A stretch of DNA of 64,000 nucleotides from Marsupella aquatica (GCA_973895155.1 OZ316894.1:1876457-1940456), one strand, 5' to 3'; numbered from the stretch's first letter, positions 3,639 through 53,308 are shown. Translations and numbers: made by a program. Notes: a model not told the origin generated them from the sequence alone.

Positions 3639-3699
3639 GAGAAACCTCAAAAGAAGGAAGCCGGGAGAGGTAAAATGATGAGAGTATTGATCAAATAAA

Positions 3700-3710
3700 G
3701 GCCCGTAACC
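3700..3710 (-). other. primer binding site, GGTTACGGGCC (half-tRNA-iMet type)
   Basis: The minus strand reads CA-TA-GGTTACGGGCC, closely matching the GGTTATGGGCCC PBS of copia-type elements, ~60 bp upstream of the gag ATG. Confidence 0.65.
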
Positions 3711-3712
3711 TA

Positions 3713-6625: not shown

Positions 6626-6971
6626 TAAAGAATACTATTCATTAACACGCAAAGTAGTACTAAAATAGTATCCAAGCAGAGTCCACCTGCCTTGTCACGA
6701 CTAAACAAATGGGTTTTGCTAAAATTTTGTCACGAAAACGCAATATTCCTGAAGAAAACCACCGAATCAATCATGAATACAAAAAGGGACTTAGAGGGAC
6801 AAGTGCACTCTGCAGATCAGTGCAGGAAGCTGACGATGACGATGTTGTAAGACTACTTCGATCATGCTCTTTGTCTCGAGAGTATTGTACTTTTGAAGTG
6901 TTCTCCAAGAGACCTGCACACCGTTCCTGATCGAACTGCAATCGGATGTGAGCTTTAGCAATAGGATTTTC

Positions 6972-14015: not shown

Positions 14016-15035
14016 TTGGGTGTGATTTGTCACCTTGTGCTCTTAACAACAACTTACGCGGCAAGCTTCAAGGTCTCTCTCAAAGTGAAGCCCTCAATTC
14101 GTCCTCCCAGAGTCTACAAACTATCGGAATGGCTTTTCAAAGTTAGGATGAGTCCATGAGGGTGCACCCTTCCTTTCAAGAAGAAAGTAAAGAAATATCA
14201 CCTTCCTGAACCAATCAGCTCAGGAGAAACCGTCACGTACACATGCATGCACCTACTGTCGAATCAGAATTGTTAATAATGCCCTCCGTCCCACTTTGTT
14301 TCCCGTGATGATCTCACTTCCACTGTCATACTTGTACAGTCTATATGATTGTTAATAATGCCCTCCGTCCCACTTTGTTTCCCGTGATGATCTCACTTCC
14401 ACTGTTATACTTGTACAGTCTATACGATTGTCAATTATGCCCTTTATCCCACTCTGTTTCCCGTGATGATCTCACTTACTCTGTTATACTTGTGTAGTCT
14501 ATATGATTACAATCGGTAGATTTCTAGGAGATTTTCTAAATAGGGAGGTTTATGTTTTAGTAGTTCTGCTTTGCGAACCTTCTAGAACATCTAGAATTAA
14601 AAATTACAACACTGGATGTGCCTTGTCATCACAAAACAAATGGGTTTTTATTTTATTTTGTTGGATGTGCCGTTTCATAACAAACAGTGCGTTTTTCTTT
14701 CATGATCTTAGTTATCTTGTTGGATATGCCTTCAGTTGTCATGATGAACAAATGGGTGTGGTTTGTCACCTTGTGCTCTTAACAACAACTTACGCGCCTT
14801 CAAGGTCTGTCTCAAAAGTGAAGCTCTTTGTCCTCCCAGAGTCTCAAAAATATCCGAATGGCATTTCAATTTGAAGATAAGTCCATGAGGGTGGAACCCA
14901 TTTTTTCAGGAAAAACAAAAATATCACCTGCCTGAACCTTCTCAGCTCAGGAGAAACCGTCAATATATAATAAAAACGTGCGCCTATTAGTGTAGATTAA
15001 CTGTTAATTGTTCCCTCCGTCCCACTTTGCTTCCC
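14016..15035. repeat. local duplication (14016-14240 ~ 14752-14965) enclosing a 79-bp tandem repeat (x3, 14270-14510)
   Basis: gggtgtg.tttgtcaccttgtgctcttaacaacaacttacgcg occurs twice; tgttaataatgccctccgtcccactttgtttcccgtgatgatctcac recurs with a 79-bp period. Confidence 0.85.
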
Positions 15036-19632: not shown

Positions 19633-20056
19633 TAATTCCTAAACTTTCTGTAATTTTTATTCAAAGAACATTCAGAATTTTTAGAATTTTTTTATTAAAA
19701 TGAATGCTGGATAGTTTGGTTATAAACTAAAAAAACTTATATAATTTGGTTTTCATCAAACTTTTTCATACCAAAATATTCAAGTTATATTTTTGAGTTA
19801 AGAGCTACTATAAGAGTTGAGTAACAGGAAAGTAACATTTCATGGTAGGTTGGATAAAGCGATTATAAAGAATTAAAAATTTGCCTTATAAAAAGCAAGG
19901 TTGTTGCACTGTGCAGATGAGTTTGATCAGTTTACGGGTTTGATCAATCATGCTCATTGTCTCGAGAGTATTGAAGTTTTTTAGTGTTCTCTAAGAGACC
20001 TCAGACCGTTCCTGATCGACATCCAGTCGGCAGTAAGCTTTAGTAACAGGATTGTC

Positions 20057-22858
20057 ATGGAAAATTTTCAGTTTCATTTCCGTGGGCAGAAGATAGACTT
20101 GCGGGGGGTGTTTCTGTCTTCTGCCATAGCAGTTTCGGTGGTGCTGGTAATCCACTACAAACTGAAAGGCCGACGTAGAAGCCTGGAAAATGATCGTCGA
20201 TTGCCTCCTGGACCCCGTCCATGGCCCATCATCGGGAATCTGGGGCTACTGGGACGTCTTCCTCATCTGGACTTTGCCAAGCTTGCGAAGGAGTATGGAC
20301 CTATCGTTTACTTGCGCCTGGGCACGGTCCCCACTCTCGTCGTCTCTTCCCCCAAAATCGCTGAAGTGATCCTCAAAACAAAGGACCATATCTTTGCCTC
20401 AAGACCAAACTTCGTTCAGGGCGTAATTATGGGGTACAATAGGCACACTATAGGCAGCGCGAGTCACGGACCGTACTGGCGGTACGCGCGTAAGATGATC
20501 ACTGTGGAATTGCTGAACGACAAACGACTCCAACAGTTTCAGGTACATAGCTCTTGGCTACGACATCAGCTTTAATTTCACGTCCATGGTTCACTGGACT
20601 GGCAAATCTGTCACGTTGGGTTTTTATAATTTGAGACCTTCTATTTTCATTTCCTTGCTCTGTGAAATACGTTCGTTCTAGAACTCTGAAGTTTTATTGG
20701 CTGCGGTTCATTTTGACGTCTGTTGTGCTAATGCTAGTCTGTAAAATAAATTATGTGATCTGCCGTCATTCGTTGGAATCGATGACTTTGCTTTGGTCAC
20801 TTCTGGCATAAGAGAAGAGAAGAGAAAAGTTTAGTTATGTACATTCATTTGGCTACATGTCTTTTGGGGGAATAGAAATGGTAATGTACAACAGTGTAGA
20901 GTGCCTACAGCTAACCTGCTAAGTCTCTGTTATTCTGTCCAGAGCCTGCGGAAAAAGCTGGTCATGCGTACTCTACAATCTATACTTGAAGAATGCAAAA
21001 TGGGAAAAGATGTGAATTTACACATAAAATTCGGGCTGATGACAAAGAACAACATCACTCAAATGATGATCAAAGAGAGCTTCTTCGGGCCCAATTCAAG
21101 CGCATCCAATATGAAAGAAGCTGCCGAGTACGATGAAGTCATAAATGATCTCGCCCGGTTGATGGGCGTTTTCGACTACGCAGATTACGTCCCATTGCTT
21201 CAGAATTTTGATCTACAAGGCTACCAAAAGAAAATGCAAAAAGTGCAACGAACGAACGACGTCTTCATTGATAAAGTAATCGACGAGCATCGGCAGGTAG
21301 CTAGTTCCAAGTCCTCTCGGGAGCTCACCAAGAGTGACCGGCAGGATTTTATCGATGTGCTGCTGACTCGTCCCAGCGAAGTCGATGACAAGCCTCTTAC
21401 AGAAGATCAAATCAGGGCCATCTTGCTGGTACAGTGAATCAATCGATTCAAATCACCACTATACTCACCGGTACCTCTATAATTCAGTTGGCGATAACAT
21501 ATTTCGCGCTGAACAATATATATGTCACAATGCTTACTCCATTGTTTGCCTATATTTATCCATCCTTCAAGGTGCTCGCAAACTTTCGTTTCTGTCTAAT
21601 TGTGTGCAAGATTCATATATAGTGTACCTCCTCACCAAAGATAAGTTACTTAACGAATGATCGATTGTAGGCGTGATTATGTAGATGGCAGGGGCAAGCT
21701 TGCATTCATATACGTACGGTAAACTTTACATAACCAACGCAAGCGAGTTAATATATGGCAGTACGTTGAGGCTTTCAGAAACTTACTCCCAATGCAAGAT
21801 CATTACTGCTGCTAATGATCCTGGTCGAAACTCCAGGGAGCTATGCACTTCTTTGCTCTCATCAAAACAAGATCGACTCCATAGGCGGTCGGGTTGAAGT
21901 GGTTCATATATGGCTGAAGCTTCTCATCGGGATAAGCCATGGGTTTATGGTTTAGAGTCGGGTAGAAACTGTCTCATGGCTGGTTGGAGGGCGGAGTATT
22001 TCACCGAGAGGCGTTGAAAGTATTTCATGTCCAGAAGAGGGTGCCCTCAAAGCTTGTGTACAATTATTAAATGAACACAATTTGTGTGGTCTTAAGTCGA
22101 AGGAATTAATGTAGTTCGGGGAAATTAATTAATTATGCAGTCCAGGATTGAGCTGATGCGTTGTTGATGTCCAATCATGCATCTAAAGTTTGCCTGTGGA
22201 AGTGCAGGGCTCCGTCGTGGCAGGGACGGTCACGTCAAATAATACTCTGGAGTGGGCAATGACGGAGCTTTTGAAACACCCGGCGGTTCTGAAAAGAGCC
22301 CGAGAGGAGCTGGATACCGTCGTGGGGTCAAACCGACTTGCGCAGGAGACCGACATTCCCAACCTTAAGTACCTTCGCGCTGTAGTAAAGGAGATCTTTC
22401 GGCTGCACCCCGTCCTTCCAATCCTGCTTCCCCACTATAGCATGGAATCATGTGAGGTAGCCGGGTACCACATACCGGTTAATTGTCAAGTGTTCGTCAA
22501 CGTCTGGGCTATTGGGAGGGACCCTGAAGTTTGGGAACGTCCTTTGGAATTTGATCCGGAGAGGTTCTTGAAGAACAATATGGATACCCTTGGGTTGGAC
22601 TTCGAGCTCCTACCTTTCGGCTCAGGCAGGAGAAGCTGCCCAGGAAGAGGCATCGGCCTCCTCATGGTGGAGTACACACTGGCGGTGCTACTTCACGCTT
22701 GCAACTGGCAACTTCCTCCAGGAGTCAGCCCCAAGGATGTCGACCTTGGAGAGGCGGAGGGATTGACTTGTCCTAAAGCTATTTCTCTTGAAGCGACCGC
22801 ATCTCCGCGCCTGCCCGTTGAGACCATCTATGGTGACAACATTTACCCCTCCTACTAA
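20057..22858 (+). CDS. cytochrome P450, CYP71 clan, copy 2; exons 20057-20542, 20943-21428, 22208-22858 (~540 aa)
   Basis: Same exon structure as copy 1 and a near-identical protein: AGTVTS, KEIFRLHP, DPERF, PFGSGRRSCPG. Confidence 0.95.
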
Positions 22859-28093: not shown

Positions 28094-29039
28094 TCAATCT
28101 TCAGTTTCATTAGTGTTAAGGGCAAGCGGCATATCGACAGTCTCCCATGGTTTAAGTACAACCTGGAGTTGGTCAAGAGCACTACACAATTGTCTTCGTT
28201 TCTTCTCAGAACTGCAGATGTCAATCATTGCCCTGAGATGAGTTTCTGTTTGCCGAAGGACGACCCAACCGGGGAGGCGACCCAAAAACTGAGAGTAAGT
28301 AGCGTCATTCCGTTCTTTCCAAATGCTGGAGCACATCTCCATAATCAATACCATCGGGCCAGGTTTCCTTTTATGCAACTGCACAGCAGTAATGATCGCT
28401 TCGTACAAAGATCCTTGTGAAATCTTCCAATCTCCAGCTCGTTGTAGAACACGTTGGACCTCTCCCCATCTACCAGTAACAGTAGGACAGCTGAAGAACA
28501 TGTGTTCAGTGTGCTCAAAATGAGTTTTACACTTAGCACATAAGCCATCCAAAACTCCCCAGTGACTAGCCCTGCCATTGGAGAAGAATCCATGATTCAA
28601 CAGTCTCCACAGAAAGAATCTCACCTTGGGGAAAGACCAGCCTCCCCAGATTTTCTTCCAGTACTGCTGCCAGTGCTGTGAAGAGCTGACCTGTCCCCAA
28701 CGCCGGTTCAGCTTAGTGACATCAAGCTCCCTGGTTAGGGTGCATTGGCTCCAAGTCCTGGTTGAGAAAGACCAGCCTCTATTCTTCCCCCCAGTCCCAT
28801 TGCCAACCGGCACAATCCTGCAGCTCAACCATGGCAATTTCCGAAAAACATTGTAGCTTGCTATAGAAAATGCTGAAAGCTTCGTTACCAATCCTCCTAG
28901 TGCTCCGGGTCCGACAACAGATCTCATCCTCCGGGATCCACCTGCCAAGCTGAGACCTGAGATCAAGCAGAGTCCTAATTCTACGATTAGCCAGAAACCT
29001 CCTCAAGTCCGTGCCCTATTGTGTCGTGGTTTGGGTGTT
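28094..29039 (-). pseudogene. LINE ORF2, 3' part (zf-RVT domain)
   Basis: WKKIW..PKVRFFLWR..CAKC..EHMFFSC..IWKERN. It rejoins the 5' part in frame once the inserted transposon is removed. Confidence 0.88.
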
Positions 29040-29360
29040 AACAAGAAGCCTTAAGGGATGAGTCCAAAGCCTTATTTCTCTTTTCAAAATCTTCATGATA
29101 TTAAAAAGTGTATACCAAAAAACCACCAAAAAATGGTATGTATTTTCCAAACTAGACTCAAGAGAATTTTACCACCAAAATCTAAGCATATCTTATATGA
29201 TATTCTCACAATTGTATAAACCTTGAAATATGCACTTTATAAAAGTAATCAAAATCAAACTCATCGATCAGAGTTTAAGTCAAACTCAAAGTTTTACAAA
29301 ATATAACCCAACTTAAGCCCAAGTGGTTTCAAATGCTACGAGTCCCTCTATTTATCTAGT

Positions 29361-32300
29361 CTAATCCAAAGGGACCGCTTCCCCTTCCTCGGTTCCAGAA
29401 GTCCCTGTCGTCAATTCTGGAACAATTGTGGCATCGTCAACCACGCTATCCTCTCCGGCCTGAGGAATGTCTTCCTCACTCTCCTCATCCATCTCCCCCT
29501 GTCCGTCTTCCTCTTCAATGTTATCTGCAAGGTTAAGAATCCTCCCTTTCAACACACTGCTCTGTCGCTCGTCAATCTCAATGGCAACGCAATGTCTCCC
29601 CATGGCCAAGGAGGAGGTTGTCCCAGTCCCTGATCCTGAACAAATATCCAAAACCCAGTCTCCAACCTGACTAAAATGACTCACTTCCCAATCTAACAAT
29701 GCACGTGGTTTCTGATAAACATTCACTGCCTTGTTATCCCCGTTGTGTTTCAGCTTCTTAGTCACAGCTGCGCATACAACCACATTGTTCCTTGATTCAT
29801 TTGTGTCAAAATTGAAGTGCTCCAATGACCGTTTACCATCCTGGCTGTGAAAGCCAATTGTAAAGCACTCAAAGTTGCTGTTCAATCTTGGTCCACCAGC
29901 ATTCTTCACATTATCCTTAACCCTGAAAAGTCACAAAAAGTCAAGGAGTTATTTAAACTGAGAAACATGGTTCATGAAATCATGAATAACTAATAGTTGT
30001 TTTTTTCAAAAACAAATATTTCTTACCACACACAATTCTGGAACCCTCCATTACACTCCGCTTTCAAAACGGTCTTGATGGCCTCATATTGGTCAAGGTT
30101 GTGGTGAATGATAATACGCCACAACTTTGCAGTAGTAGCCACCTTGAACGATTGGACCATTTTTGTGATCTCCTCAGTTCCCCATCCAATAGTGTCTTCA
30201 TGAAGACATCCAGGCAATGCAAACCCGTAGGGAATATCCACTAAAGCTAATGTGTAAGCCCGACCCGGAACCACCTCATGTAATCGCTGAGCATCATGAG
30301 TAAAAATATCATAGTGCACATCACCAAACTCTGGATGCTCAAACGAATTTGGATGAAGTTCCCCCTCTTGGGTTTGCCGACTAGAAGTCTTCATGGATAG
30401 CCAATTTTGGGCTTGCACAATATGCGCATTGAATTTGTCCGGGAATGACTTGAGATCTTTGCCTTCCTCATCTCCCTTCTTTTTCCGGGAGGTGGTATCT
30501 TTCTACAAAAAGGAACTATAGAATTAGAAACAAGGATTCCAAATATTAAATGAATTCAAACAATCATTCGAAGAAAGGTGACAGAATCTTACCCATGTCT
30601 GGAAAACAGGTACGAAATTCTTAAGCACATTGTCTGTGCAATGCTCAGGGTACTTGGTTTTACAACCTGACCAACTCTCCTCGTGTAGACACGTGAGGAA
30701 GGCCTTCTGCACCTGCATCTGAAATTTGTGTCGAGTAAATTCGTGACCCATTTCCTGTAAAGAGAGTTCTTTAGTAAGAACTCTCTGTAACACTGGGCAA
30801 ATCATATCAGGATCTTTCAAGGCCTGCATGTGTCTCCACTCTGTTAATTTCATGTCCTCATAAGGCAATTTGGCATCTCCAGACTTAGAGACTTTCTTCT
30901 TGCCTTTGTCTCCTTTTTGACCTTTGATCTCACACATCTCCCACTTGTCACAAATCTGCCTCACAAATGACCACACAGGATCTTGTCGGAATGCCAACTG
31001 AAATAGGTTATCATTGGCATTAAGAACCTCAGCATCCTTTCGTACACCCCAATCCTTGAGATTGATTTCAGTAGCACACTCTTTCTTGAAATCCTGGTTG
31101 GACGACAATCCATTCTCAACAAATCTCATGTGAATATAATTTACTCTCTGGATTGTCGTCATCTGTTGTCGAAATTCAGAATCAATATTGTGACTCCACG
31201 CCAGGTTTCTTGCCTCTTGCACACTCAATCCCGCAAATATCCAAGATTGCACTCTCCGAAATGCCTTGTTGTTAGGGAACTCAAGAGCAAGGTCTGCTTT
31301 GGCACAGGCTGAATGGTTGCCCCCAATCACATAATAATGGTAATCAGCTTTCCTTGAAAAATCAAAGTCTTGCCTAGTAGCACACTCCTTCGGATCCACC
31401 AAGAGGACAAACGGAGCTGCAAGTGGACTGGCACCTACAGTCTTCATCCGCAAGGTCAATTGGGTCAAGAAATATGGTTGGATGTGTCGGACCTGGTAAA
31501 TGGGCAAGCCCATAGCCTTCTCTCTCACTGGAGGGTAAAGTTGACCAATGTCAACGGTCACGGTCTCCTCTTGAACACCACATCTTCCCAGAATCTCCTC
31601 CTGGTACAATACCCGTGCATCCATTGACATTGATTGAGCCTTTTGCTCCAAATGCGTTGGAATTTTCTCCAAAGTCTTCTTTTTTGACTTTGTAGCACTG
31701 GGCTCGGTAGGCTCAGGAGTCATAGCAGGTCGCTTCTTTGAAGAAATGCGAGTTCCAGTCGTACCTTGTGCCGACCCACCAGTCAAAGCCGTTCCCTGGG
31801 ATGATCTGCCAACTTGAGATCCCCCTCCAGATGCTGCTGCTTCCCGGGAGGTTGTAGGCGCTACCACGGTCAAAATATCATTGGGTAAAATGCTAGGCCT
31901 CGATCCAGAAGGAACACCGGAAGCCCCAGATTTGGGTGGACGACTTACTCCCTTCTCTGCCGACCTTTTCCGGAGAATCTCTCTTGATTTTCGGATTGCA
32001 CTCTTTAAAGTGCTAGCGTGAAATTCAAACACAAAACCGGAAATCTTTCCCGCGACGTCGTGGTAACGTTCCTCACTCGAAAGAGACTTGACAGTCTCAA
32101 TGATGCTATCGATGTCCTCATCGAGATAGCAGGTGGCAGCCGTTCCAGAAAACCTCTCCACATCCACGACAATCAAAGTTGATGTTTCCTTCGTTGTGAT
32201 CAACATGTTCACAACTTCGTCGCCCCGTCGAAATACATCGATGCGGCCGTAATTTACCCACCCTAATGCCCCCGATGGAAGCCCCTCAAATACACACAGC

Positions 32301-32422
32301 ATTAGGAAGGGCTTCTTCCATGTTTCCGTCCCTAAGGAAATCGTCCAGGATGAGTTGTGGAAGTCCGTCAAAGGATGGCGCGAAAAGATGTCATCCACCA
32401 GCTCTTCCTGCGACATTGTCAT
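29361..32422 (-). CDS. ParB/Srx-like domain + beta-class amino DNA methyltransferase (N6_N4_Mtase-like); exons 32422-30593, 30502-30027, 29922-29361 (~955 aa)
   Basis: GT-AG introns 30592-30503 (phase 0) and 30026-29923 (phase 2) join three ORFs into one open frame of 2868 nt. ParB-like motifs: YQVR, YVIGGNHS, EARNLAWSHN. MTase motifs in beta order: IV LALVDIPYG, WVK, YQKP, I VLDICSGSGT, GRHCVAIEID. Confidence 0.85.
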
Positions 32423-33201
32423 GTTTTTGCCTGATCTTCAAACCTGAGAACATACCACAAAATCAGTCCACTTCAACCCCAACCTGCGAGACAAAGTGCC
32501 ACAGAACCAAGGAATGTGCCAACAAATGGCTACTAAAACCGTGTCCTTACGGATCTAACAACGCTCTCGGCCACCCCAGGACTCCTATCATGAATTCATG
32601 AAGGGAGTCTCCCTCTCGCTCCGACCTTCATGAATTCATGAAGGGAGTCTCCTCTCTCTTTGCTTGTACACCTCGGTGATGCAGAAGGGTATTTAAAATA
32701 GGGTTCGGAGGGGGGTGACGTGAAGAAATCACCCAGGGCCTAAATTACTACCTAAAACAGGGTCGAAATGAAGTGCGACCGCGACAACTCGCGACACGTC
32801 GCCGATGAGTGCTGAAAATGGCACGAAATTGGACAGCGAGATTGTTTTTCACTCTTTTACAAAGGAAATCCAAATGACATTGAGTGAAAATGAATGGGCT
32901 GCCCCGTGTTCCTTGGTTATACATACTAATCACGGATCAGGCGCGACTTAGTAAAATTAACCCAGAATCATGATAAATCAATGTTTTTGGGCCAATTATT
33001 CATGAATATTTCGGGGTATTAACGGGAAAAAGCTTGCAAATTTCATGAATATTTGATATTTTTGAAGTTAAAAAGTCCCAACAATCCGTGAAAAACTATA
33101 AATAGGCTCATTTATTCATGACTCTTGGTCATTATTTTGAGAAGATTTGTTAGATTTTACTGATTTTCTGAGTTTCTTGTCAATTTGCACTAGTTTTTCC
33201 A
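32423..33201. promoter_or_regulatory. divergent intergenic/promoter region of the transposon with palindromic repeats
   Basis: Lies between head-to-head ATGs (32422 minus, 33202 plus). It contains a TATAAATA at 33097-33104 and a 25-bp direct repeat tcatgaattcatgaagggagtctcc at 32588 and 32628. Confidence 0.55.
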
Positions 33202-35438
33202 ATGGCGGCGTGTTACGAATCAGATGATTATTCAGATGGAGTTTCTGATGATGTTTCATTGCCGGATGGCCCCTGCACAGTGGTTGGCCCAGATATCCCT
33301 GGAATAACTACTGTTTTAGATATGCCACCCCCCACCCCTATGAGCAAGTTAAAACGTAGTCCTTTACGACTTGCAATTAGTGGGAAGAAATCATTGGTCG
33401 GTGGTAAAGAGAGGTCAGGGAGCTCCTCTGACTCCTTGGAGAGTATTGGTCCCCCTGGACGTCAAGTTGTATCTCCTTTGTCACCAACAAAGGACAAATT
33501 GGGGAGTAATCTGGAAGGTTCAATGCCTATTTGGATGTCTGGGAAACGGTCTCATGAATTCATGAAGACTGGATTTGGAAAGACGAAGAAGGCACTAAGT
33601 GGGGAAAATGACAGAGATTTTTGCAGTCTCCAAAGTGTTCAGCGGCTGAAGCAAATGCCAAAAAGTAAAACCTTTGGTAAGCCAACGTCGGAAACATTTC
33701 ACAGGGGGATGAGGGAAGAAACTAGACGACCAGTGTTATTGAACAATCCAAAGAACGTGAGAAACTCGCGAAGCATCGTAAGAAATGTTTTTCAAATTCT
33801 GATAAATATTTGGGAGTTGTCATTGATGGGATGGATCAGAAGAAGACAAGGTTGCCTCATTGGCCGCGGCCCCCAAAATCGGTGGACGAAACATGTTTGA
33901 TCCAAATGCACGTTGTCGGATGCCTGGTTTTCAATGGTGCATTATTTTCAAGAGTGTTTCTTAATTATCCTGTATTGCATAATGATGGAAACTTGACAGT
34001 CACAATCCTGCAAAGGGTGTTTCACAAATGGGAAGAAAAGCCTGGTGGCTTGCCGCCTGTTCTCTATCTTCAACTTGATAATACCAGTAGAGAAAATAAA
34101 AATAATTTACTCTTTGCCTATCTTCATATGTTGATTCGAAGAAAGGTTTTTCGGAAAATCAAACTAGGATTCTTGTTGGTTGGACACACACACGACCAAA
34201 TAGATCAAATGTTCAGTCGATTTTCTAAACGACTAGCAAGGTTTAAGGCATTCACATACGAAAGCCTATGTGATATTATTTGTGAATCATATCAACCCCA
34301 ACCAAATATCACTCTTTTAAAGGAAACATATGATTTCCGTCAATATGCCTTCTCAGATCCACCTTTAGTCATTGAAAGGATTCGAAATGTTACCTTCCAC
34401 CACCAGTACAAATTTGCATTTGACAAGTTGGAAAATCAAGTTCCAACCCAATGGGGGAAGAAGTTTTCCACGGACTCAACTTGGAAACCTGACGGAGGCG
34501 TGAAATTTTTGAGGGAAGAGGAGCCAGAAAAGGTGATGGGTTGTGCTCCCGGATTACCCCTTTTCAAAAAGGGGGATAAGAACGTTACAAGGACTCAACC
34601 AAATATGTCTAGTTCTTCAAGAATGACTTTGAAGGAGATGGATGATTCGTTAAATGAGATTCAAAAGGGAATACTTGCAGTTGAAACTTTATTCTCAGAA
34701 GAGGAAGTGAACTGGTGGAGAATGTTTTTTGAAGAGCAACGGGAATTGAATAAATCTTTGCTCCTTGATCAAAGACCATTGATTTTCCCTTTTCAATGGC
34801 CACGCTCCCAAAGGGAGATTGCTGTTGCTGCTGAAGTTCCCAGAGTCCTTGTCAATGAAGAGGAAATTGAAGAGAGAGTATACGGACCTACCAGAGATAT
34901 ATACGTGGGTCCTTATCGGAATCAAGGAAAGATAGATGCAGAGAAGGAGAATATGGAAGGAGACTTTTCGGATCTTGAAGTCAACACTTATATTTCTGTT
35001 GCTGGAGAAGAATCGGAAACATTTTGGGTGGCCAAGGTGGAAAGAATTGACCAGCGCGACGAGTTCAACATTCCAAAAATGATTTATGTTTTATGGCATG
35101 CTACAAAAACCGGGTCAGATCCTTGGAAAGCCAAGTACTTACCAGAAGTCTTAAACTACGAAAAGAAGAAAAGTGGTCGTGGGAAAGGAACTTTGAAACC
35201 AATATGGTTTCACCAAGAGCTTGATTTATCTTCAACGACTGTTTTTGCTTACAACTTCATGTTGACAAAATCTGATACATTGTACAAAAAGACAGTAGAT
35301 CGAATCAAAATCCGATTGACTGAATTTTTGGCAGAAGAGAAAGAGCAAGAACAAGAGAATGGATCAACTAGAACCCCGCTAGGAGATAAATCTAGGGATA
35401 TTTCGTTTCAAGAATTGAGGACTTCTGGATCTGAGTAA
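33202..35438 (+). CDS. Sola-like DDD/RNase H-fold transposase, with the N-terminus out of frame with the catalytic core
   Basis: The core frame is open from ~33726 to 35438 and contains YLGVVIDGMDQ, LYLQLDNTSRENKN and FLLVGHTHDQIDQMFS (three candidate catalytic Asp). The upstream ORF 33202-33900 is in another frame. It lies inside the TIRs. The superfamily assignment is by motif resemblance. Confidence 0.75.
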
Positions 35439-35997
35439 TGAAAAGTAGTTATTGTTTGTGACATTACCATTGAAAAACATGGATAACTTGAAAATTTACA
35501 AATTTTCAAAATGCCTTTACCACTTATTCATGAATTCATGGTTAAAGTTTCTTGAGAAATTTGTAGTTTAATATTATCTTAGTGGGTTGTGTTTCAATTC
35601 AATTAGATGGTGTCATTTCTATTCTCCTTGTCTTCTTTTCACAATAATGTGTATCAGGTTAAGTTGTAGTAATTTATTTTCTGGTTTTTAAATGACAATG
35701 GCTTTTGGAGGTGATTTAGTTGTTGTTTCAAAAGACACCTCGTGTAATTGTGAGACCATTGTAGATAATAGTGTTGTATTTGAGATCATTTATTGGTGGA
35801 ATGTAACTTCAGATGAATTTGGTCATTTTTAGGTGTCAAAACATAGCTAGTTTATGTCATATTTTGTTCGCTCCATATTTTTGCTCTAAAATAGGTGCTA
35901 ATTTTTGCACTTTTTTTGACTTTTCGTTGTTTTTCTGATTTTTTGGCTAGAGTTCCTAAAGTATGGGCTTGTTACTCATCATTTAAGGCTTCTTGTT

Positions 35998-38924
35998 TGT
36001 TGCGCAGGTACAGTAGCACAACTTGTTCAATGGAGAGATGGGATGGAAGCTTCCCTTGTCCAAAGTTGAAAAGAAGGTGGCTACTCGCATTGTTCCAACC
36101 CTTAAGCAGACCCCGCAGTGTAGGGGAGCCCTGGATCTTCAGCTCATCACCCTGCAGCAAGGCTTCAGTAACAGTCCACCTTCTGCGCTCCTTCTTGCCC
36201 TGTCCAGAGTTGCAGCACTTCTTAATGATCTCCTGTGCCATCTTCACCCATTCCCTGTCCGCCCCAATGATGAGTTTAGAGATATGCCTCATCTTTAGTG
36301 CTTCGGCCTGTTCTTCAAAGGGCTGAATTCCCAGTCCCCCTTGGCCCTTTGGTGTAAGCAACGACAGATTTTTTCCATCTCCATAAATCCAGTCTTGTAG
36401 AGCGACAATGTCATCAGGTGATAGGTTGGAATTGACCTCAAGACGTGCTTCATCAAAATAGCTCTCCCAACCATAGTCAGACTCCGATAAGTCCAATGGT
36501 TCAGCCGACAACGCAATTTCCCGACCAGGAAGGCAGCGGCATGAGTGGGCGCACCTTATACCCAATAGGGCACCCCAGATACTCAATGACTTCCCCTTCC
36601 TTGGCGATTCTGCATCCAGTGTTCTTCATCCACTCTGGGTAGTGCCCTTGCATAAAGTAGATCGGTATAATCTGAGATTTCTTCACATTCAAAAGAGCTC
36701 CAAAGATGTTCTCATACTGTTGCACTGTCTTCCTAGCTTCCACAAAGTCATTCTCCGTTGCTACCAAGAAGAGGCCTGTGTCATCCGCGAACAGTTGATA
36801 GCAAATGTTGTTGTTGTTGGCAACTTTCAATCCTTGTATATGCCTTGCCTCCAGTTGCTTCTTAAAGAGTGCCATCAGTGGTTGAGTCGACAGAGCAAAG
36901 AGAAGTGGGGACAAGGGGCAGCCTTGCCTCACCCCCCTCTCCAACTGAATGGGTTCTGTGAACCTCCCATTAACGTGAACTTTGGATTGAGTATTAACCA
37001 CTAGCCCCTGCACAAGCAGAATAACATGCTCATCAAAATTCATCGCCCTCAGCACCGCCCACAGGAAGGAATGAGCCACCCGATCGTAGGCTTTGGTGAA
37101 ATCCAATTTGAGGAACACAAGTGGCTGCTTGCTGAGTGGCGCATGCTCCTGGGCCATCTTGAAGGTCAACAGGTTATCCAAAATGTCACGGCCTTCCAAA
37201 AAGCCCGTCTGTTGTGGATCCACCAACTTACTTGCCACCCCCTTGAGACGATTGGCCAGCAGCTTTGCAATCAATTTCTCAGTCAGGGTAAGCATGGTAA
37301 GAGGTCTCCAATTGCTCAGCTCCTACGTGTCTCCATTCTTAGGAATCAACTTAATGACACCGGCGGAGGCCCTAGTAGTAAGCTTTCCATCCTTCCAATA
37401 TGCATGGATCATAGTGACACAGGCTGGCTTCATGAAATCCCATCCCTTAATCAACATTTCTACTGTCATACCATCCAGCCCAGGGGATTTCTCCTTGGGC
37501 AGGGTGAAGACCATCTTTTCAATTTCCTCCTCACTAGGTAGTCGCCCAATTTTCTGGTTGTCAGCTTGTGTAGCCTTAGTAGAGATCAGCCCCAACGCCT
37601 CCCCTAGAGCATCCTGATGCGTCAGAACGTGTGTGTCTGCGGTGTACAATTTTGAGTAAAATTTATGTATTTCCCCAAGGATAATGGTCTCATCTTCGGT
37701 AATTTCCCCATTCCCTCTCTTCAGCTGCTTGATGCTCTCCTTAGCATGCTTCGCTTTGAGCTGGTTGAAAAAGTACTTGGTAGGAGCTTCCCCTAGAGTT
37801 AGCCATCTCACCCGACTTTTCTGTCGCAACTTGATGGCATCCGCTTTAGCCTGTTCCCTAGTTCTATCCTCAATCCTATCCTCAATCCTGCCAAGCTCGT
37901 CCAACTGGTACTTAGAAGGATTTGCCCCCAGCTCAGTTCTGAGCTTGTTCAGCTCATCCCCTAGGTGCCCAGTGTTCCTTTTTGCCGCTCTCTTTCGCTT
38001 CTCCCCCTGGAGTAGCTGTTTAGTGGCCCCCCAACAGAGGTCCCAATTCACCCTGGGATCCCGGTTCTCCACCCAGTTTTCCTTCCATACCCGTTCAAGT
38101 TCCTGTTTCATCTCAGGAGACTCAACTAATTTTGCATCCATTTTGAAATAAGTGGCCTTCCTATGTGCATTCAAGGACAACTTTTGTCGTAACACAAAGG
38201 TGGTCACCACTGGGACATGGTCGGAGATGGTCTCCCTACCGTCATGCATACAAGATTTCACATACTCACACCATTGATTTCTATTACTGCTGTAGTTGCG
38301 ATCCAGACATGACTGGTCGTAGCGGTCAGACTTCCTAGCTTGCCTGGTGTAGTATGGACCAGTACGAGTGCCTGCACAGAGATAATTGTCCACCAAATCT
38401 AGGTGGTCCACTAATCTGTTCTAGGCTCTAGCCTCTGAGCCATGGATGAAGGCCGATGGGCCCACTGCATCATCGAATAAATCGGTCATGTTCCAATCTC
38501 CCCCAAAAATCCAATTCGACTCCTTCAGGTTGTTGCGTAGCCACTTCCAGAGAGAGGTCCTTAGACGTCTCTCGTTCGGGGCGTAAATAGAACCCACACT
38601 GATCTCTCCCACGCAAGTCTTAATAGTTGCCCACACAAAGGATCCGTCCCCTTTACACCCGTGTTCCACAATCTGGTATTGCTTGGGGATCAACAGAGCA
38701 GCTCCAACCTTTCCTTCCCCCTTCTGATCTACTAATTTAGTCCCTTCATGGTCGATGAGACCCAGTTGAAAAATAGCCCGCTGCCTCTTAACCTTAAGTT
38801 CCTGGAAACAACAGATAGCCAAACCAAGCGTGTTGTTGTGAATCCATCTGTTGATCTGTTTAACCTTCAAAGGGTCTCCTAGCCCCCTCACATTCCATTG
38901 GCAAATGGTCAATTCGTCATTCAT
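35998..38924 (-). pseudogene. LINE ORF2, 5' part (APE endonuclease + reverse transcriptase)
   Basis: WNVRGLG, FQELK, IYAPN, GGDWN, SDHVPV, KSPGLDG, LDFTKAYDRV, GVRQGCPLSP, LFADD, YLGCP. It contains stops and frameshifts. Confidence 0.92.
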
Positions 38925-40810
38925 CTAAGACCATTGTTATTTTGGCCCACTGTCTGTCTGCCTAGGCCGGTCCCCCTCTCTCCCGAAGTTGATTTGATCT
39001 CCGTCCCGTGGACTCCCTTCTCATCCACTCCTTTCCTAGGTCCCCGGTCCAAATTGTTGTTGGTGTTAAGCTTGGATTGTTCATAAGTGAGCATCCTCGG
39101 TCCAGTGCCGTCGGGTCTTTCTGTGACATGGTACGGAATTTCTTCCGGGAGAATTTCAGCCATTCTTTTATCACTGGCGAAGGTTGGGACAGCCCCAGTA
39201 TGGGTACTCTTCCTGGTTTTTTTGGGTTGTTGTCGTGCTAGTGTGCCAGTCTTTGTTGGGGATGATTCCTTGCCTGATCCCCCAACATTCGGTGGGGATT
39301 GTGCTGCTTTCCTAGAGTTCTTCACTACCTAAGTATCCATAGGTTCTGCTCCCTCAGTTTCCGAAAAGCTGACCACAAAACCCGGGGGTATCAGGTCCAT
39401 AGTCGCTGAAATATTACTGGGAATAGCAGGTTTCAAGCCTTCTTCACCTGGCTCCATACTGGCTTGCTGCCTGAGGTTGTCGGGTGGGGTTCCTGTGTGG
39501 ATCCTTAAGTTTCCTGCTTCGTTTCCCACTCCTGTCTCCATCATAGCCGGATTGGACGCTGGAGCGATCTCCCCTTCTTCCAGATCATTCAACATAGCCA
39601 GAGCACCAAAAGGGTTCTCACTCTGCCCGAGATTCGTTGCTGTTTCTCCTGCACCCTGCTTCCCTTTGTGTGAAGCCCTGGTTTTCACTATTGTGTACCC
39701 TTCTGTGTTTCTCTACTCCTGCAGGATCCCCTGTTTGTCTGTTGGTGTCGGGGGTGACAATTCTGGCTGCTGTCCTGCTGGGCTCTTTCTCAAGCTGGGC
39801 TTGTTGGGGCAGTATCTTGCAATGTGTCCTCTCTGCTTGCAAGCAAAGCAAGCGTCTGGCAACGTCCTGTATATAACATCCACCCTGTATCTACCAACTC
39901 CTGGTATTGTCAGATCAATATATTCTACTAGATCCTCATTCAGGTTGCAAAGCACACATCCACGTATATGTGAGAATTTGCTTCTAGCCCTAGCAGTCTG
40001 TGCATACAGCACCTTACCAACTCTAGCTAGCATCTGATTAGCATAGTACTCAAAGGCTGGGTTGAGCAAAGGAAGATCTACCCACACGGGTGCTTTAGTG
40101 GATCTCATTGCTTTGGCATCAAAATCAGGTGTCCACGGCATAGCAATGACCATCTTCCTGCCCATGCTAAGATAAGGCTCAAGTAGAATCGAGGTTTGGT
40201 CCTCTGGAGTGGATACCACAATCAGAAAAGTGTACCTAGCCAATACTTTGATTTGTTCAATGGCAATATTCATTCGAAGCCCAATGACCTCGTGGGCCCA
40301 TTCTTCAAAGTAGTCTCTTGATGGGTTGAAATCTACTGTATACATTATGATCCCCCTATTTTGTAAATGCAGGATACGACTCGCTACAATATTCTTTTCT
40401 ACAACCAAAATTTCTGACCTCATTCCTGGTGATGGATGCTCTGGGACCTGCGGCAGATGTGCCAGTTGCTCTCGCAGATCTTCATTGGATACATATATCC
40501 CGGCTTCTTTATCGAGGTTGTTATCGTAAGGGTTATCCTCCTCCTCCTCCTCCACTTGAAAGTCCACCAGGTCATCGTCTTCCGCTGGATCCCACACTGG
40601 GTCTTTGAACCCAAAGCTACCCCCCCTTTGTTGGCTAGTGCCAGCTGCTGCCATCGCGTACGAGCTTGCATTTTCCTCTGCCTGATGCGCCTGCCCTCTA
40701 TATGATATTCCATCCTGGCAATCATGTGTGCGTGGGCTTCCGTTGTTGTCTCTGGCTGTGCCACTAAGGGGAATAATTACCTCCGAGCACATAGTGTCCT
40801 TGCTCAGCAA
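38921..40810 (-). pseudogene. LINE ORF1 (DUF4283-like region + CCHC zinc knuckle), interrupted
   Basis: APVWVDLP and CFACKQRGHIARYC motifs. It continues through 39329-39688 and 38921-39325, and its stop overlaps the ORF2 ATG (ATGA). Confidence 0.85.
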
Positions 40811-42399
40811 TCCTTGGGCCCCATGCTCTAGTTTCTACCTTCAAGTGTACGTATATAATTATGTAAAAAGAAATGTCTTGAACATGATGTAGGATATAGT
40901 AAACACTTAATTAGAATATGCTTAGTTTGAGCCTCTCTCACTAGAGTGTACAGTCATAATTATATTAATATTCATATATCTCATTTTGACCCTTGATTAT
41001 CATTGTAGATATTATGACATTTTAAATTTATGATTTGAGTATTATTGACATCTGATTCTTGGACCAATTTAATTTTAATTTAATTTGTGCATTAGTTACA
41101 ACATATTATTTTATTTAATATTTATTGATTTTATTTTAATATCTATATTTATAAAATTTTAAGGGAAATCTGTGAAACCCCACAGAAAGGAAGAGTCGGC
41201 CACAATAATTGAACCCAACACCTATCAATCTACTCAAGTGAGTTACCACAAAGTCATGCCTCTAACCAGATTCAATTTAATATTAAATATTAAAGATTTG
41301 GGAATCAAAAAGTGTATTTATTTGGGGTGAAAAATATTCATTTGGGGGCTCATTTTAAAGAGTTTTGGGTTGAGAAAAAACAACTTTAGTCTTCATTTCC
41401 TAGACTTTTAAAAGTCAAGTTTTAATGAATACACTCCAGTGATATGTATCTACTCCTTTGGCCAAATTGTTGGTATTGGTAGAGCATCATCCCATGCCAC
41501 CTCCCAACCCTCAAAAGAAAAATGATTTATTTGGCCTCCTCAGAATCTCAACAATAAAAAAATTATTTTATATTATGTGAGGGAATGACTGTGCAGGTTA
41601 CCCTATTTCCTAGGACTCAGTTTGACTTGGTACCCTCCTTTTGGCAAAGGCAAGAGTCTGTCATACTCCATACCCCTATCAGGTAGGGCACTCTCATGCC
41701 TGCACAAGCAATCAAGAAATGAACACTGAGAGTCAAAATCTGGCCAGTGGACATAGTTTATAACTTGGGGCGCAAGATGTAGTAAGGGTTCTTCACATCA
41801 TTTAAGAGATATGCAGTTTTGCAGTCTCATTCATAAATTATCCTCAGTGGGTTATTTGTAGGGTAAGCCATTTCTTAAGGGGTTTAGTTGGGCTGTATTC
41901 CCCTAAGGAGTCACAGGCCATGGCCCCAAAGAGAGGATGGGTTACCCTTGGGGTTACTTCACCTTATGAAGTTGTTGTATGCTTTGTGTAAACACCCCTA
42001 CTAAACCACATCCTCTCAAAGGGATAGGAAGCTAAAAAAAACACATGACAAATGATGTATCCTGTGATGACATATGGCACTCTGAATGATTATCCCTTAC
42101 TTGCTTTATCGTGACTTCTAAGTACTTCCCTAATAGAACAACTCTTAATTCGTTCTCATATGATTGAGTTAATTTATGGAAGTGACCCCAGTGGTTACCT
42201 GAGTGGGATCAGATTGTGGCAGTAACACAGATATTTAAATGAAGGAATCGCGAGTCTGGTAGATGAGAGCCTTGTGCTCCATATTAACCGTTAATGAAAA
42301 TACAAACTAATGTCACAACAAAGGTGTTAGGACAATCATGGGTATATGCAAAAATCAATCAATCTCAAGTTCTAGATGTCATTCCAGAGTCCGTCGACT

Positions 42400-48440: not shown

Positions 48441-48636
48441 TCAATACCATAAAGCTAGGAAAGTAAAATGTGAGGAGAAATAAAAAATTTGAGTGGCTCT
48501 TAGAGCTATTCTATCTCAATACCATAAAGCTAGGAAATTAAAATGTGAGGAGAAATAAAAAATTTGAGTGGCTCTTAGAGCTATTCTATCTCAATACCAT
48601 AAAGCTAGGAAATTAAAATGTGAGGAGAAATAAAAA
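48441..48636. repeat. 75-bp tandem repeat (~2.6 units)
   Basis: tcaataccataaagctaggaaa.taaaatgtgaggagaaataaaaa at 48441, 48516 and 48591. Confidence 0.9.
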
Positions 48637-48936
48637 TATATCAGTGACTCTAGACAGTGACTCTAGGACTTTACCAAAGTATATGATTGTGAATGTAAAG
48701 AAGATGTACATAACCATGATGATATATTATGAATGACATGAACGAGAGTATCTGTGGATGCAAAAAAGATGTACATGCATAGACATGATCCACTCACTTT
48801 AATACACAATCCTATCTTTTTGTATTCATAGTCTGCTTACAAAACTCACTTTTGGAGGGAACTCATTATGACCCTTAGATTTAAACTTTACATTTTCCTG
48901 CCCATCCTTTACATTTTCCTGCCGACCTTGACTTAG

Positions 48937-49630
48937 TCGGATTTAAGTTTCGCCGTTTTTTCACTTTTTCTGCATGTTTGGCGATTTCGACGATTTCGCG
49001 ACTCAATTTGGGTCGTAACTTTCTCCAGGAGTTCGGATTTGGGAGTTCTTGACGGCTTTGGAAAGATCTTGGCGAGGCGATGAAGATCGATACGACTTGC
49101 ACCCCAAACGGTTACCGTATGAGCGAGTTACATCGGATTTAAGTTTCGCCATTTTTTCACTTTTTCTGCGCGTTTGGCGATTTGGGCGATTTCGCGACTC
49201 AATTTGGGTCATAACTTTCTCCAGGAGTTTCGGATCTGGGAGTTCTTGACGGCTTTGGAAAGCTTTCGGCGAGGCGGTGAAGATTGATACGACTTGCGCC
49301 CCAAACGGTCACCCCATGACCGAGTTACATCGGATTTAGGTTTCGTCTTTTTTCACTTTTTCTGCGCGTTTGACGATTTTGGCGATTTCGCGACTCAATT
49401 TGGGTCTTAAATTTCTCCAGGGGTTTCAGATTTGGGTGTTCTTGACTTTGGAAAGATCTTGGCGATGCGGTGAAGATCGATATGAATTGCGCCCCAAACG
49501 GTCACCAATTGAGCGAGTTACATCAGATTTAGGTTTCGCCGTTTTTTCACATTGGCTGCGCGTTTGGCGATCTTGGCGTCTTCACGACTCAATTTGGGTC
49601 AACGTATGAGCGAGTCACATCGGCCTTAGG
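48937..49630. repeat. ~196-bp tandem repeat (~3.4 units) at the 5' end of the CRE-like element
   Basis: cggattta.gtttcg restarts at 48938, 49134, 49331 and 49524; the units are CpG-rich. Confidence 0.9.
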
Positions 49631-50622
49631 CCATCGCTTTCTCCTCCAATTGGTTGTCGCCTTCGGGAGCTGTAGCCGCACGCTCAATCCAGAGGATGAA
49701 TCTTCACTCGCGTCGACTCCCCAGCGGACAGCTAGACGGGTGCTTCAGCTTTGTTTCTTACAGTTCCTGCACCTGCTCAACGGTTTCCTAGGCTAGCGGT
49801 GGCGCCGTTTCTCGGCCTGATGCGGTGGGCTCTCTCCATCGCCTCCCCTTTCTTTTCACCTGCCTCGGTTGGGCCTTTTGTCGCTTCTTGATGCGTTTTT
49901 GCTTTCATCGGATTGCGACCTATCATGTCTGCGTTGAGAGTGTTGGCGCGGGGCAAGCGCCCAGCCCCACCCCACACTTCTCCCCCATCCTCCCCTCCCC
50001 CTCGTGGTCGTCTTCGTGTTTGCTCTTCTTCATTGGATCTCTCTCATCTTCATGATGACCCCATGCCCGATGCTCTGCCAGTCCCCCCGTCTACTGCCCA
50101 CCCCATCGTCGCCCTGGCTCCTCTCCCCACCCCATTCCCTCTCCACCCATTCATCATCCTCCTCCGGCCTCCTCGTCCACATCTGTTCCACCCCCACCTC
50201 TTGTCCAGTCTTTCCCTGCTCCCTCCCCGGACGAGCGTCCCCTGCATACTTGTCCTGACTGTGGATGGGTTGGCATCTCCCTCCCTCATCATCGCGGGCG
50301 GGGCCGGTGCCATCGTCGCCAGCAAGCCCAATCCCAGCCTCAGCCCCCTATTGACCCGGTTAGCTCTGCCCCTCCCTCCTTGGAGACTCCCGAGCAGGCA
50401 TGGAGTTGGGTTCGCACTCTTGACCCCCTTCCAGTCTACCATCCAAGGTACATTAGACCTCGCCTTTATAACCACATTCCTCTGGCGCTGCGCCCTTTAG
50501 TTCGGTCCTCCTTGTTATAACTCATGCAGCTTATCTTGGCGCATCCTATGGAGGTCTCCTACTGGTCTTTACTGATGCTTTTTCCATAGTGGTCTCTTAC
50601 CCTCCCTAGTCATGGTGATCGT

Positions 50623-53308
50623 GTGGGTCACCGTGAGACTGCCTCTCGTATCCATCGTTTTTTGCAGGGAGATTGGGAGCAGCTTCAGGAAGAGTACTTT
50701 CTTCGCGCCCGGTCTTTTACCGCCCGTACTTTGTCTGACCCAGCCCGCCACTCTCATCCCCCTGAGCATAGACGTCTTCGTCGCTCTTGTCGTTTAGCCC
50801 AGGCTGGTGAATATCGTCGGGCTGTCCAGGCCCTTTCTCCCACCACACCAGCCCCCCCTGGCGAGGTCACCTCATCGGCCCTTCAGGATCTCCATCCGCA
50901 GCCCCATGATCAGCTCCCTTTGTTCGTAGAGGATTTTGAGCCTGAGGAGGATCTTCAGTTTAGTAGGGACCACTTCACCTATGCCTTCCTCCATGCCCTG
51001 CGTTGCGCTGCTGGTGGCCCCTCTGGCTATGTCTTTGAGCATTTTTGGGATTTATTCCCCCCTGAGGATCCTCAGTTTGGTTTTCCAGTTTTCTTCTCCT
51101 TTTGCCAGTGTATTGCAGCCGGTCGTTTGCCTCCTCCCGTCTCTCGGCTCTTGAGTGCTTCTCGTTTATTGGCCATGGCTAAGTCTTCGGCCAATTGCTA
51201 TTGGGGAGGTTTTTCTTCGGCTTGTGTCTCGCACACTTTCCTCGCAGTTTCGCTCTGCACTATCAGATCATCTCTCTCCACATCAGTTTGCAGTTGACGT
51301 TCCTGGCGGTTGTGAGACAGTTATTGCGGGTACTCGAGCTACCTTGGACCTCCACCTTGATTGGGTTGTCCTCCAGGTTGATGTCTCTAACGCTTTTAAT
51401 ACGGTTTCTCGGGCAGCCATTTTTCGTGCTTTGAGGGCGGCGGATCCAGACATCCAGTCCCTGATCCCCTTTGTCCGTTGTTTTTATGGACTCAAGGCCC
51501 CACTCTTCTATAGTCATCACTCCTCTATAGGTGTGTATACCACTCTTTCCTCTGCAGAAGGTACTCGTCAGGGTGACCCTTTGGGTGGGCCTCTTTTTGC
51601 CATTGCCCATTTTAAAGCTTTACGGGAAGCCGCCTTGGCCCACCCCCAGTGTATCTTCCCCTCCCTTTCAGATGACACCCACATCATTGGTCCTCCTGCC
51701 GCGGTTACTTTTGCCCTCGCCACTCTTTCCACCCTTTTGATGGGCCTCGGTTTACGAGTTCAGCCTGTGAAGAGTCGTGCATGGAGTCCAGCTGGGTTAC
51801 CCTCTGATCTTGCGCTTCCCCCAGGGTTCTTACATCCAGCCGATGGTCTTTGGGTCCTTGGCTCCCCAGTCGGTACCGCCTCCTTTTGCTCCTCTTTCAT
51901 CGCTGACTCTCTACAGGCTGCCTTAGCCTCTACTCCTATGCTCCCTAAGTTAGCAGATTCTCAGGCAACATTTGGGATGTTGTTGAGGTGCATCCACCCT
52001 CGTGCGTCTTATTTGGCTAGGACGCATCCCCCTACCGAGGATCTTTGTCTCCACCTTTGAGCATTTGATGTCTCCATTCGTCAGACCCTGGCCTCTCTTT
52101 TGGGGGCCGGGTACGTTGCTCTCATCTCCGTGGCTTCATCGACAACTCAGTCTTCCTATTTTGCAGGGTGGTTTTGGGCTTACTTCCATTGAGAGCCTTG
52201 CACCTTTGGCCTTTTTGGGTGCGTGGGCGGCCACCTTCTCATTGTTGGCCGATTGTTTTCTTATTGAGGATCACCCTTTTTTACTTTCATCTCTCATGGA
52301 GGTAGAGGAGGGTTCCCTTCCGTTTCAGGTTCATTTGCGCGCAGCGCGGTCCTCATTACCAGATCCCATTCGCGCCGCGTTACCTTTTTTTCAGGAGTTT
52401 TTATCCTTGGATCCCGTTTGTCTTCAGGCAACCTCGTTGGGCGTATGCACGCTTTCACCCTTTCCAGCATCCTCTCTGAGGCACCTGACACGGACCAAGC
52501 TCGGATTCTTTCTTCCGGAGGGAAGGGCACAGGTGGATGGCTTCAGGCCAATCCAGTCATTCCTCATTTGCGGATGTCTTCAACGGAGTTCTCCACAGCC
52601 ATGCGTCTTCGTATGGGGCTGCCCCACCCACTTCTTGCAAGTTTACCCCCTTTTTGCACTTGTGGGAAGCCTTGTGATGCCACAGGTGTCCATCTTCTTC
52701 GGTGCAGTTTGGGAGGTGAAACCATTATTGTTCACGACGCTGTGCGAGATGCGACTGCTCAAGTTCTCTCTGGCTCTTTGGTATGCGTGCGGCGGGAGGT
52801 GGTACTCGAGTTACCTGGTCCTCCATCACAGCGGTTACGGGTGGATCTTACCATGGTCCGTGAGGGTCAACGTACATTGGCAGATGTAGTGGTGGCAAAC
52901 CCATTGCGCCAAGACATCATTGGGACAGTAGCAACTACGGCAGGGGCAGCAGTGTCACGTGCGGCAACAACAAAGGAGGCCAAATATGCTGCACGAGCTT
53001 CATCCGACAACTTCCTCCCCCTTGCTCTAGAGCTATTTGGGCGTCTTCATCCTTAGTTTGATGGGCTTCTTTGGCAAGTTGCCCGGGATGTTCATGGCCG
53101 CATGGGTCCCACCGGACCCCCGCTTTCTATTTTGACCACGCACTTTCGCCAACGCATTTCAGTCACCTTGCAGCGTGCTCAAGTTCGGGCCATCTATCAT
53201 CGATCTCTTACAATGGGTGCTAGTGTGCCTCCGCAGCGGCTAGCTCCCCTAGAGGATGTTCTAATCCCACTTGTCGATCTAGTTTTGACCCTTGATGTGG
53301 ACCAGTAG
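50623..53308 (+). pseudogene. RT-RLE polyprotein of the CRE-like element (frameshifted)
   Basis: ORFs 50623-51297, 51155-52060, 52002-52889, 52418-53056 and 53102-53308 tile consecutive domains. Confidence 0.82.

Follow-up and report, generated by a model that had tools for sequence, protein, structure and literature searches.

What is a methyltransferase of prokaryotic type, interrupted by spliceosomal introns, doing in the genome of the land plant Marsupella aquatica? We approached this question in a stretch of 64,000 nucleotides (the window), whose minus strand carries the gene. The original prediction placed the feature at 29361..30502, an interval that covers exons 2 and 3 and leaves out exon 1. 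The gene instead begins with an ATG at 32422 and ends with a stop at 29361, and its predicted spliced frame of 955 aa has no internal stop (Table 1). Within this frame the catalytic motif IV, DIPY (aa 699-702), lies N-terminal to the SAM-binding motif I, DICSGSGT (aa 861), which is the beta-class order, with YQKP at aa 838. The W-x-K motif between them, W-V-K at aa 769-771, is created only by splicing across intron 2. All of these elements had been proposed beforehand, and each was found.

The exon structure recurs in relatives of the gene. An independently annotated gene model from Calypogeia fissa, 62-67% identical, joins both of the same junctions and carries DIPY. In two distantly related metagenome loci, L001 and L002 (dN about 0.25-0.29, dS above 2), GT-AG introns occupy identical positions, with identical phases, at both places. 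Among 13 exon-1 homologues, 11 stop soon after W-V, as expected from read-through into intron 2, while one stops after Q-V and one ends earlier; in diverged contigs the alignment breaks off at the intron borders. The 5' part of the gene in L001, L002 and a third locus, L003, shows an apparent extra N-terminal coding intron that is absent from the window copy.

Table 1. Coordinates of the transposon, its genes, its palindromes and the surrounding LINE, counted from the first letter of the window
Feature	Position	Strand	Remarks
Host LINE ORF2, 3' part (zf-RVT)	28094..29035	-	Continues the 5' part across the empty site; one stop
Left TSD TGTT, 4 bp	29036..29039	+	
DNA transposon, Sola-like, 6,958 bp	29040..35997		Inside the LINE; TIRs, TSD, empty sites
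Left TIR, 32 nt	29040..29071	+	First 15 perfect, 27/32 matching
Exon 3 of accessory gene	29361..29922	-	YQKP 29717-29706; SAM-binding motif I DICSGSGT 29648-29625; acidic tail
Intron 2	29923..30026	-	104 nt, GT-AG, phase 2, 26% GC; splits the W of W-V-K
CATG-N4-CATG palindrome in intron 2	29973..29984		Mid-intron 2 in L001 and L002 too
Exon 2	30027..30502	-	Catalytic motif IV DIPY at 30238-30227
Intron 1	30503..30592	-	90 nt, GT-AG, phase 0, 29% GC
Exon 1	30593..32422	-	aa 1-610; N-terminal domain of unclear fold, low-complexity linker, ParB/Srx-like domain, helical region, in this order
Helical region (exon 1)	~31165-30713	-	
ParB/Srx-like domain (exon 1), predicted	~31573-31178	-	GGNH box 31324-31313
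Pair of CATG-N4-CATG palindromes	32589..32640		Between the start codons of both genes; spacing 40 nt
Transposase, N-terminal part (MAACY...)	33202..33743	+	Ends at the internal deletion point
CATG-N4-CATG palindrome	33553..33564		In the 5' coding part of the transposase
Transposase, C-terminal part, DUF7869	33744..35438	+	Pfam PF25273, E 2.4e-51; out of frame with the N-terminal part
CATG-N4-CATG palindrome	35529..35540		Downstream of the transposase
Right TIR	35966..35997	-	
Right TSD TGTT, 4 bp	35998..36001	+	Single copy in the empty paralogous LINE site
Host LINE, 5' part	35998..40834	-	ORF1 DUF4283/zf-CCHC, endonuclease, RT; stops

We then characterized the methyltransferase domain. Exon 3 passes the Pfam N6_N4_Mtase model (PF01555; E 1.6e-8, 35.3 bits against a cut-off of 26.7), and the NCBIfam CcrM model matches it with E 3e-10 at a score far below that model's cut-off. 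In the family profile the D-x-P-Y column aligns on the DPPY of M.MboIIA, and across alignments of 20 and of 9 homologues W-x-K keeps its W and K with little or no variation. The pattern D[IVLAFP]PY turns up three times in a six-frame translation of the window; on its own, therefore, the motif would carry little weight. A structural model is available for the Calypogeia homologue P0014, which is 62-67% identical, rather than for the window's own joined domain; it shows the permuted methyltransferase fold (pLDDT 78.5), with CcrM as its best Foldseek match (E 1.2e-13). Sequence and model together support the assignment of the protein as a beta-class amino-methyltransferase.

A search with the Calypogeia protein gave 410 representatives at E <=0.001, 150 of which were taken on; 139 rows were aligned, and 72 have a complete motif IV column. 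Its first residue is D in 62 of these 72, N in three, E in one, S in two (SVQY and SLNY) and another residue in four. In 24 of the 72 the motif lacks the P-Y/F/W end or an acidic or amide first residue, which by alignment marks a part of the family as decayed or misaligned.

Exon 1, which the original prediction had missed, gave no match in Pfam, PHROGs or NCBIfam. Its AlphaFold model (pLDDT 70.9) nevertheless finds Noc/ParB as its best Foldseek match (E 1.6e-5). Structure comparison (VIA) with ParB gave Z 10.3 and rmsd 2.0 over 93 aligned residues, and with KorB Z 8.8 and rmsd 4.7 over 199 aligned residues, reaching into the helical region. The aligned part includes the region that matches the DNA-binding part of ParB/Noc/KorB. 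We therefore predict, from the model, that exon 1 encodes a ParB/Noc-like fold. The ParB/sulfiredoxin (Srx) box binds nucleotide, and the canonical box carries an arginine. The box reads GGNHS in the clade of the window copy and GGxH[ST]R in some relatives; without the canonical arginine, a CTP clamp in the accessory protein appears doubtful. The N-terminal 140 residues (32365-32003) were modelled confidently, and their only matches, of PH-like type (Z up to 5.1), are weak; this part was found in the closest clade only. One Chara braunii protein (P0018, 1,825 aa) has two ParB-like boxes and two methyltransferase-like stretches, and probably represents two fused neighbouring copies.

The original prediction had also missed what carries the gene. 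It lies within a DNA transposon with terminal inverted repeats and a 4-bp target site duplication, inserted into a LINE. Contigs of runs X2 and X4 represent the empty site, joining 29035 to 35998 with four letters that fit either side; run X1 has this empty site too, within a paralogous LINE. In runs X1 and X6 other flanks precede the same left end (29040/29039). Between the window and the five dominant X1 contigs there are 4 substitutions and 1 gap over 3,591 nt, and this near-identity implies that the element family is young. Contig depth, which is no copy number, exceeds that of the LINE flanks several-fold to more than 10-fold within the element. Runs X5 and X7 yielded largely short fragments of diverged sequence. 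The gene is thus accessory cargo of a recently mobile, cut-and-paste, multi-copy DNA transposon. Some contigs agree with the left end and lose the match at 29084-29099, as would be seen with related families or with non-autonomous elements that have this terminus in common.

Elsewhere the window holds two tandem cytochrome P450 genes (6900-9731 and 19985-22858), about 13.1 kb apart and 91-97% identical in their repeated parts. There are also ORFs of a Copia-like LTR retroelement (gag, integrase) with stops inside (1041-3779), a degenerate, GC-rich reverse-transcriptase element with frameshifts on the plus strand (50590-53056), a tandem array of ~196-nt units (48937-49619) and short tandem arrays at 5814-6063, 14269-14505 and 48441-48665. 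The P450 genes, the LINE and the Copia-like element, together with the closest homologues of named species, would point to a bryophyte host, probably a liverwort.

The second gene of the element encodes a DUF7869 protein. Its C-terminal part contains the motifs GMDQ, LQLDN and GHTHDQID, a putative D-D-D triad; the three Asp-bearing motifs are invariant in 13 aligned DUF7869 proteins (the window's and 12 homologues). Pfam gave no match of the transposase to KDZ, Plavaka or Zator, and DUF7869 had no mention in the literature that we searched. Sola elements are defined by a 4-bp TSD and a DDD transposase (PMC10741241). The TSD and the TIRs of the element, which we call Sola-like, fit such an assignment, and its DDD transposase is putative; the available text of PMC4455052 and PMC5751038 gives nothing on termini.

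The transposase of the window copy is internally deleted at 33743. All four aligned runs continue with other sequence behind this point, and in full-length relatives the catalytic part is preceded by a further ~250 residues that contain cysteine motifs. With no whole transposase of its own, this copy would move only in trans. Contigs of run X1 have a depth over the transposase core (33846-34847) far below that over the rest of the element, which may reflect further deletion derivatives or a filter effect. A transposase homologue from Branchiostoma (P0282) is fused to a Ulp1-type peptidase domain.

The transposase and methyltransferase genes are arranged head-to-head on opposite strands. L002 has the same pair, with the same MAACY N-terminus on the opposite strand and 56% protein identity, and in Riccia sorocarpa the ParB-methyltransferase R1sor_010796 and the DUF7869 protein R1sor_010795 bear consecutive locus tags. 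By these comparisons the linkage of the two genes is old.

A k-mer count of the window element drew our attention to the palindrome CATG-N4-CATG, which was then tested, with L001 and L002 as the independent test. The window element has five copies against 0.15 expected (200 shuffles, maximum 2), L001 three against 0.09 and L002 six against 0.145, whereas the other 57 kb of the window have three against 1.5 expected (40 shuffles). L003 (1,244 nt, outside the matching places) has none. When spacers of 0-12 were compared, enrichment appeared at 4 only. When all palindromes of the form 4-N4-4 were ranked across the three elements, the arm CATG came first. Pairs of the palindrome, 42 and 40 nt apart, lie upstream of the methyltransferase gene in L001 and L002 as well. 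Intron 2 has otherwise diverged between elements and the N4 spacer differs in sequence, yet the palindrome is kept mid-intron. Beta-class methyltransferases act as dimers (PMC10406627) and ParB proteins bind inverted repeats (bioRxiv 10.1101/2025.02.11.637652). The palindrome has the form expected of a site for a dimeric DNA-binding protein and is, on sequence grounds drawn from three elements, a candidate self-recognition site. We infer that the accessory protein binds it; the transposase is the alternative binder.

Is the gene maintained? In the three pairwise comparisons among the window, L001 and L002, dN is 0.13-0.29 and dS ranges from 2.3 to saturated. The methyltransferase part (dN 0.13-0.26, dS 2.3-2.5) is as constrained as the rest, and the L002 coding frame has one stop. 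In the X6 sister subfamily, 16 of 16 listed exon-3 differences are synonymous against 21% expected (p 1e-11); the contig has 48 differences, and these sites come from the 27 that were listed. All 13 differences listed for the transposase are likewise synonymous, and of six listed coding differences in X5 four are synonymous and two are not. These substitution patterns, with dN far below dS, support purifying selection on the methyltransferase gene.

The family is present in Chara, Calypogeia, Riccia and Ginkgo; six of 20 homologues looked up have a species name (four Chara braunii, one Ginkgo and one Riccia). Introns shared with relatives at saturated dS, and this spread across the streptophytes named, agree with the long residence in eukaryotes that had been proposed. 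The accompanying claim that the introns imply expression is not supported as worded, since the presence of introns is no evidence of it. None of the contig joints listed (15 of 89 in one set, 11 in another) is an exact splice joint, which bears on expression in neither direction. As for contamination from bacteria or phages, or a chance string of motifs, nothing more than the prokaryotic fold favours it, and it is so improbable as to be negligible. It is refuted by the conserved spliceosomal introns, the insertion into a plant LINE, the lack of any relative of exon 1 in scans of viral contigs and prokaryotic genomes, and the distance of the phage, plasmid and other prokaryotic relatives, which are at most 28% identical, over the methyltransferase part only. 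The transposase alignment found no relative in viral contigs, and P0014 had no phage match. The original prediction had likewise spoken against contamination.

Which base would the enzyme methylate? The HindIII-like group of beta-class N6-adenine enzymes has DIPY as its motif IV (PMC12294265), and the four nearest bacterial matches retrieved carry DPPY, DPPY, DMPY and DLPY. None of the 72 complete motif IVs is SPPY, whereas MpDN4MT1 of Marchantia (DN4MT1), an N4-methylcytosine (4mC) enzyme, has TSPPY (bioRxiv 2021.02.12.428880), and the predicted distinction from SPPY-type 4mC enzymes thus stands. Ranked against the PDB, the profile puts the N6-adenine enzymes ahead (MboIIA, 3e-11, then M1.HpyAVI, RsrI and CcrM, 3e-11 to 2e-9) of N4CMT (5e-5) and PvuII (0.046). 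The fold discriminates less: with the P0014 model CcrM comes first (1e-13), and the 4mC enzymes PvuII (1.9e-10) and N4CMT (2.9e-10) score close to or among the N6-methyladenine (6mA) enzymes (RsrI, 4.7e-11). This agrees with the report that the folds of 4mC and 6mA enzymes superimpose (PMC10406627). The N6_N4 domain has also switched between 6mA and 4mC repeatedly (Rodriguez et al., PMC8885841), and the authors of the Ectocarpus study discussed below leave the base open (PMC12477816). Motif IV, moreover, is not strict in this family. M.BamHI is a 4mC enzyme with an Asp motif. Weighing motif and resemblance, we consider 6mA the likelier product, as had been predicted, and find it distinctly unlikely that the enzyme writes 4mC like DN4MT1 and N4CMT despite its aspartate.

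Given these data, the explanation that we favour is that an intact Sola-like cargo gene encodes a ParB-methyltransferase that likely binds the palindromes, likely writes 6mA on or near them and would thereby help the element; taken whole, we judge it about equally apt to be right or wrong. The element would transcribe its two divergent genes, and the ParB-like part would recognize the element's own CATG-N4-CATG palindromes as a dimer. The fused methyltransferase would then deposit 6mA on or near them, and the mark might tune or protect expression of the two genes or help the element escape silencing. The ParB-like and beta-class methyltransferase folds are predicted from models; dimeric binding of the palindromes, the adenine target and the benefit to the element are what we infer beyond them. 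A more far-reaching version, in which a widespread streptophyte transposon family, active today in a land plant, uses a parS-like read-write system, reading the palindromes of its promoter region and intron and writing local 6mA that counters silencing, is tentative, and would sooner prove wrong than right.

The same cargo could instead encode a protein that acts mainly as a DNA-binding or transposition helper and transfers methyl groups weakly, not at all or to no effect; alternatively, the palindromes could be transposase sites. A helper would be in keeping with the drift of the residue that stands second in motif IV (I, V, A, F, L, P), with the altered nucleotide box of the ParB part, and with the methyltransferase domains borne by DIRS elements, for which inactivity was considered likely (PMC4738411). 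Across the Chara, liverwort and Ginkgo homologues, however, D-x-P-Y, QKP and motif I all persist, the methyltransferase part is constrained like the rest of the protein, and the palindromes sit in the promoter region and an intron, not beside the TIRs. We therefore regard this possibility as unlikely. A broad 6mA writer on host DNA, or a domesticated host writer, has precedent in liverworts, which domesticated a bacterial amino-methyltransferase as DN4MT1 (bioRxiv 2021.02.12.428880), and gene models of the family exist in Ginkgo and Chara. Against it, TIRs and a TSD enclose the window copy, which splits a LINE and has many near-identical counterparts, and major multicellular lineages are reported to have lost 6mA (bioRxiv 10.64898/2026.05.21.726589). 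We hold a host-directed writer to be very unlikely, and for this copy we reject domestication, as the gene is transposon cargo, unlike DN4MT1 or N4CMT.

A ParB-methyltransferase on a transposon has already been published for Sola1-1_Ec32 of the brown alga Ectocarpus (PMC12477816), and the window gene is a new land-plant member of this architecture. By description, the two share a ParB-like and N4C/N6A methyltransferase fusion (1,104 aa there, 955 aa here), an accessory gene on the strand opposite to the transposase, a 4-bp TSD and the termini AAC...GTT, and the authors propose self-binding and self-modification by the accessory protein. Sola1-1_Ec32, however, is 21.5 kb long with a 282-bp TIR and has two intact copies, whereas the land-plant element is 7 kb with a 32-nt TIR and many near-identical copies; the available text on Sola1-1_Ec32 names no binding site. 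The Plavaka accessory genes PAG2 and PAG3 of red algae also bring a PF01555 methylase and a ParB-like domain onto a DNA transposon, with inverted repeats proposed as ParB-like binding sites (bioRxiv 10.1101/2025.02.11.637652), but as methylase-SET and ParB-2OG oxygenase fusions in separate genes of EnSpm/Plavaka elements. Iyer et al. 2016 describe other ParB-linked clades.

Among better-known enzymes, the bacterial beta-class N6-adenine methyltransferases (CcrM, M.MboIIA, M.RsrI and the HindIII-like group) share the IV-then-I order, the fold, W-x-K, QKP and the DIPY variant, but are ~14-28% identical, whereas the window gene contains introns, is fused to ParB and has no restriction partner. 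MpDN4MT1 and N4CMT of bdelloid rotifers are likewise prokaryote-derived beta-class amino-methyltransferases in eukaryote nuclei; unlike the transposon-borne D-x-P-Y gene, they are host genes with SPPY that produce 4mC, and no ParB domain is named in the available text on them. Adenine methyltransferases of prokaryotic type are also carried by DIRS and LTR retrotransposons with DAM, where they are proposed to favour the elements' own transcription; these are class I elements with enzymes of the Dam family, and the available text does not extend to ParB, N6_N4 or land plants (bioRxiv 10.64898/2026.05.21.726589). VANC of VANDAL is, as we propose here, an accessory protein of a plant DNA transposon that acts on the element's own sequence, but it removes 5mC where the window protein would add a methyl group, and protein and transposon superfamily are unrelated. 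In the literature searched, which took in few subscription papers and no Repbase reports, we found no description of the family or of the palindrome in land plants, although an earlier description may exist.

The family thus offers an intact, young, multi-copy land-plant example under purifying selection, with a conserved candidate site, in which self-recognition and self-modification are directly testable. Should the proposed function prove wrong, many gene models labelled 'DNA methylase N-4/N-6' in Chara, liverworts and Ginkgo would still be probable transposon cargo. Should it prove right, the system would be an adenine counterpart of VANDAL anti-silencing, and would trace 6mA to a defined source within a multicellular lineage whose possession of this mark is disputed, land plants being thought to have lost it.
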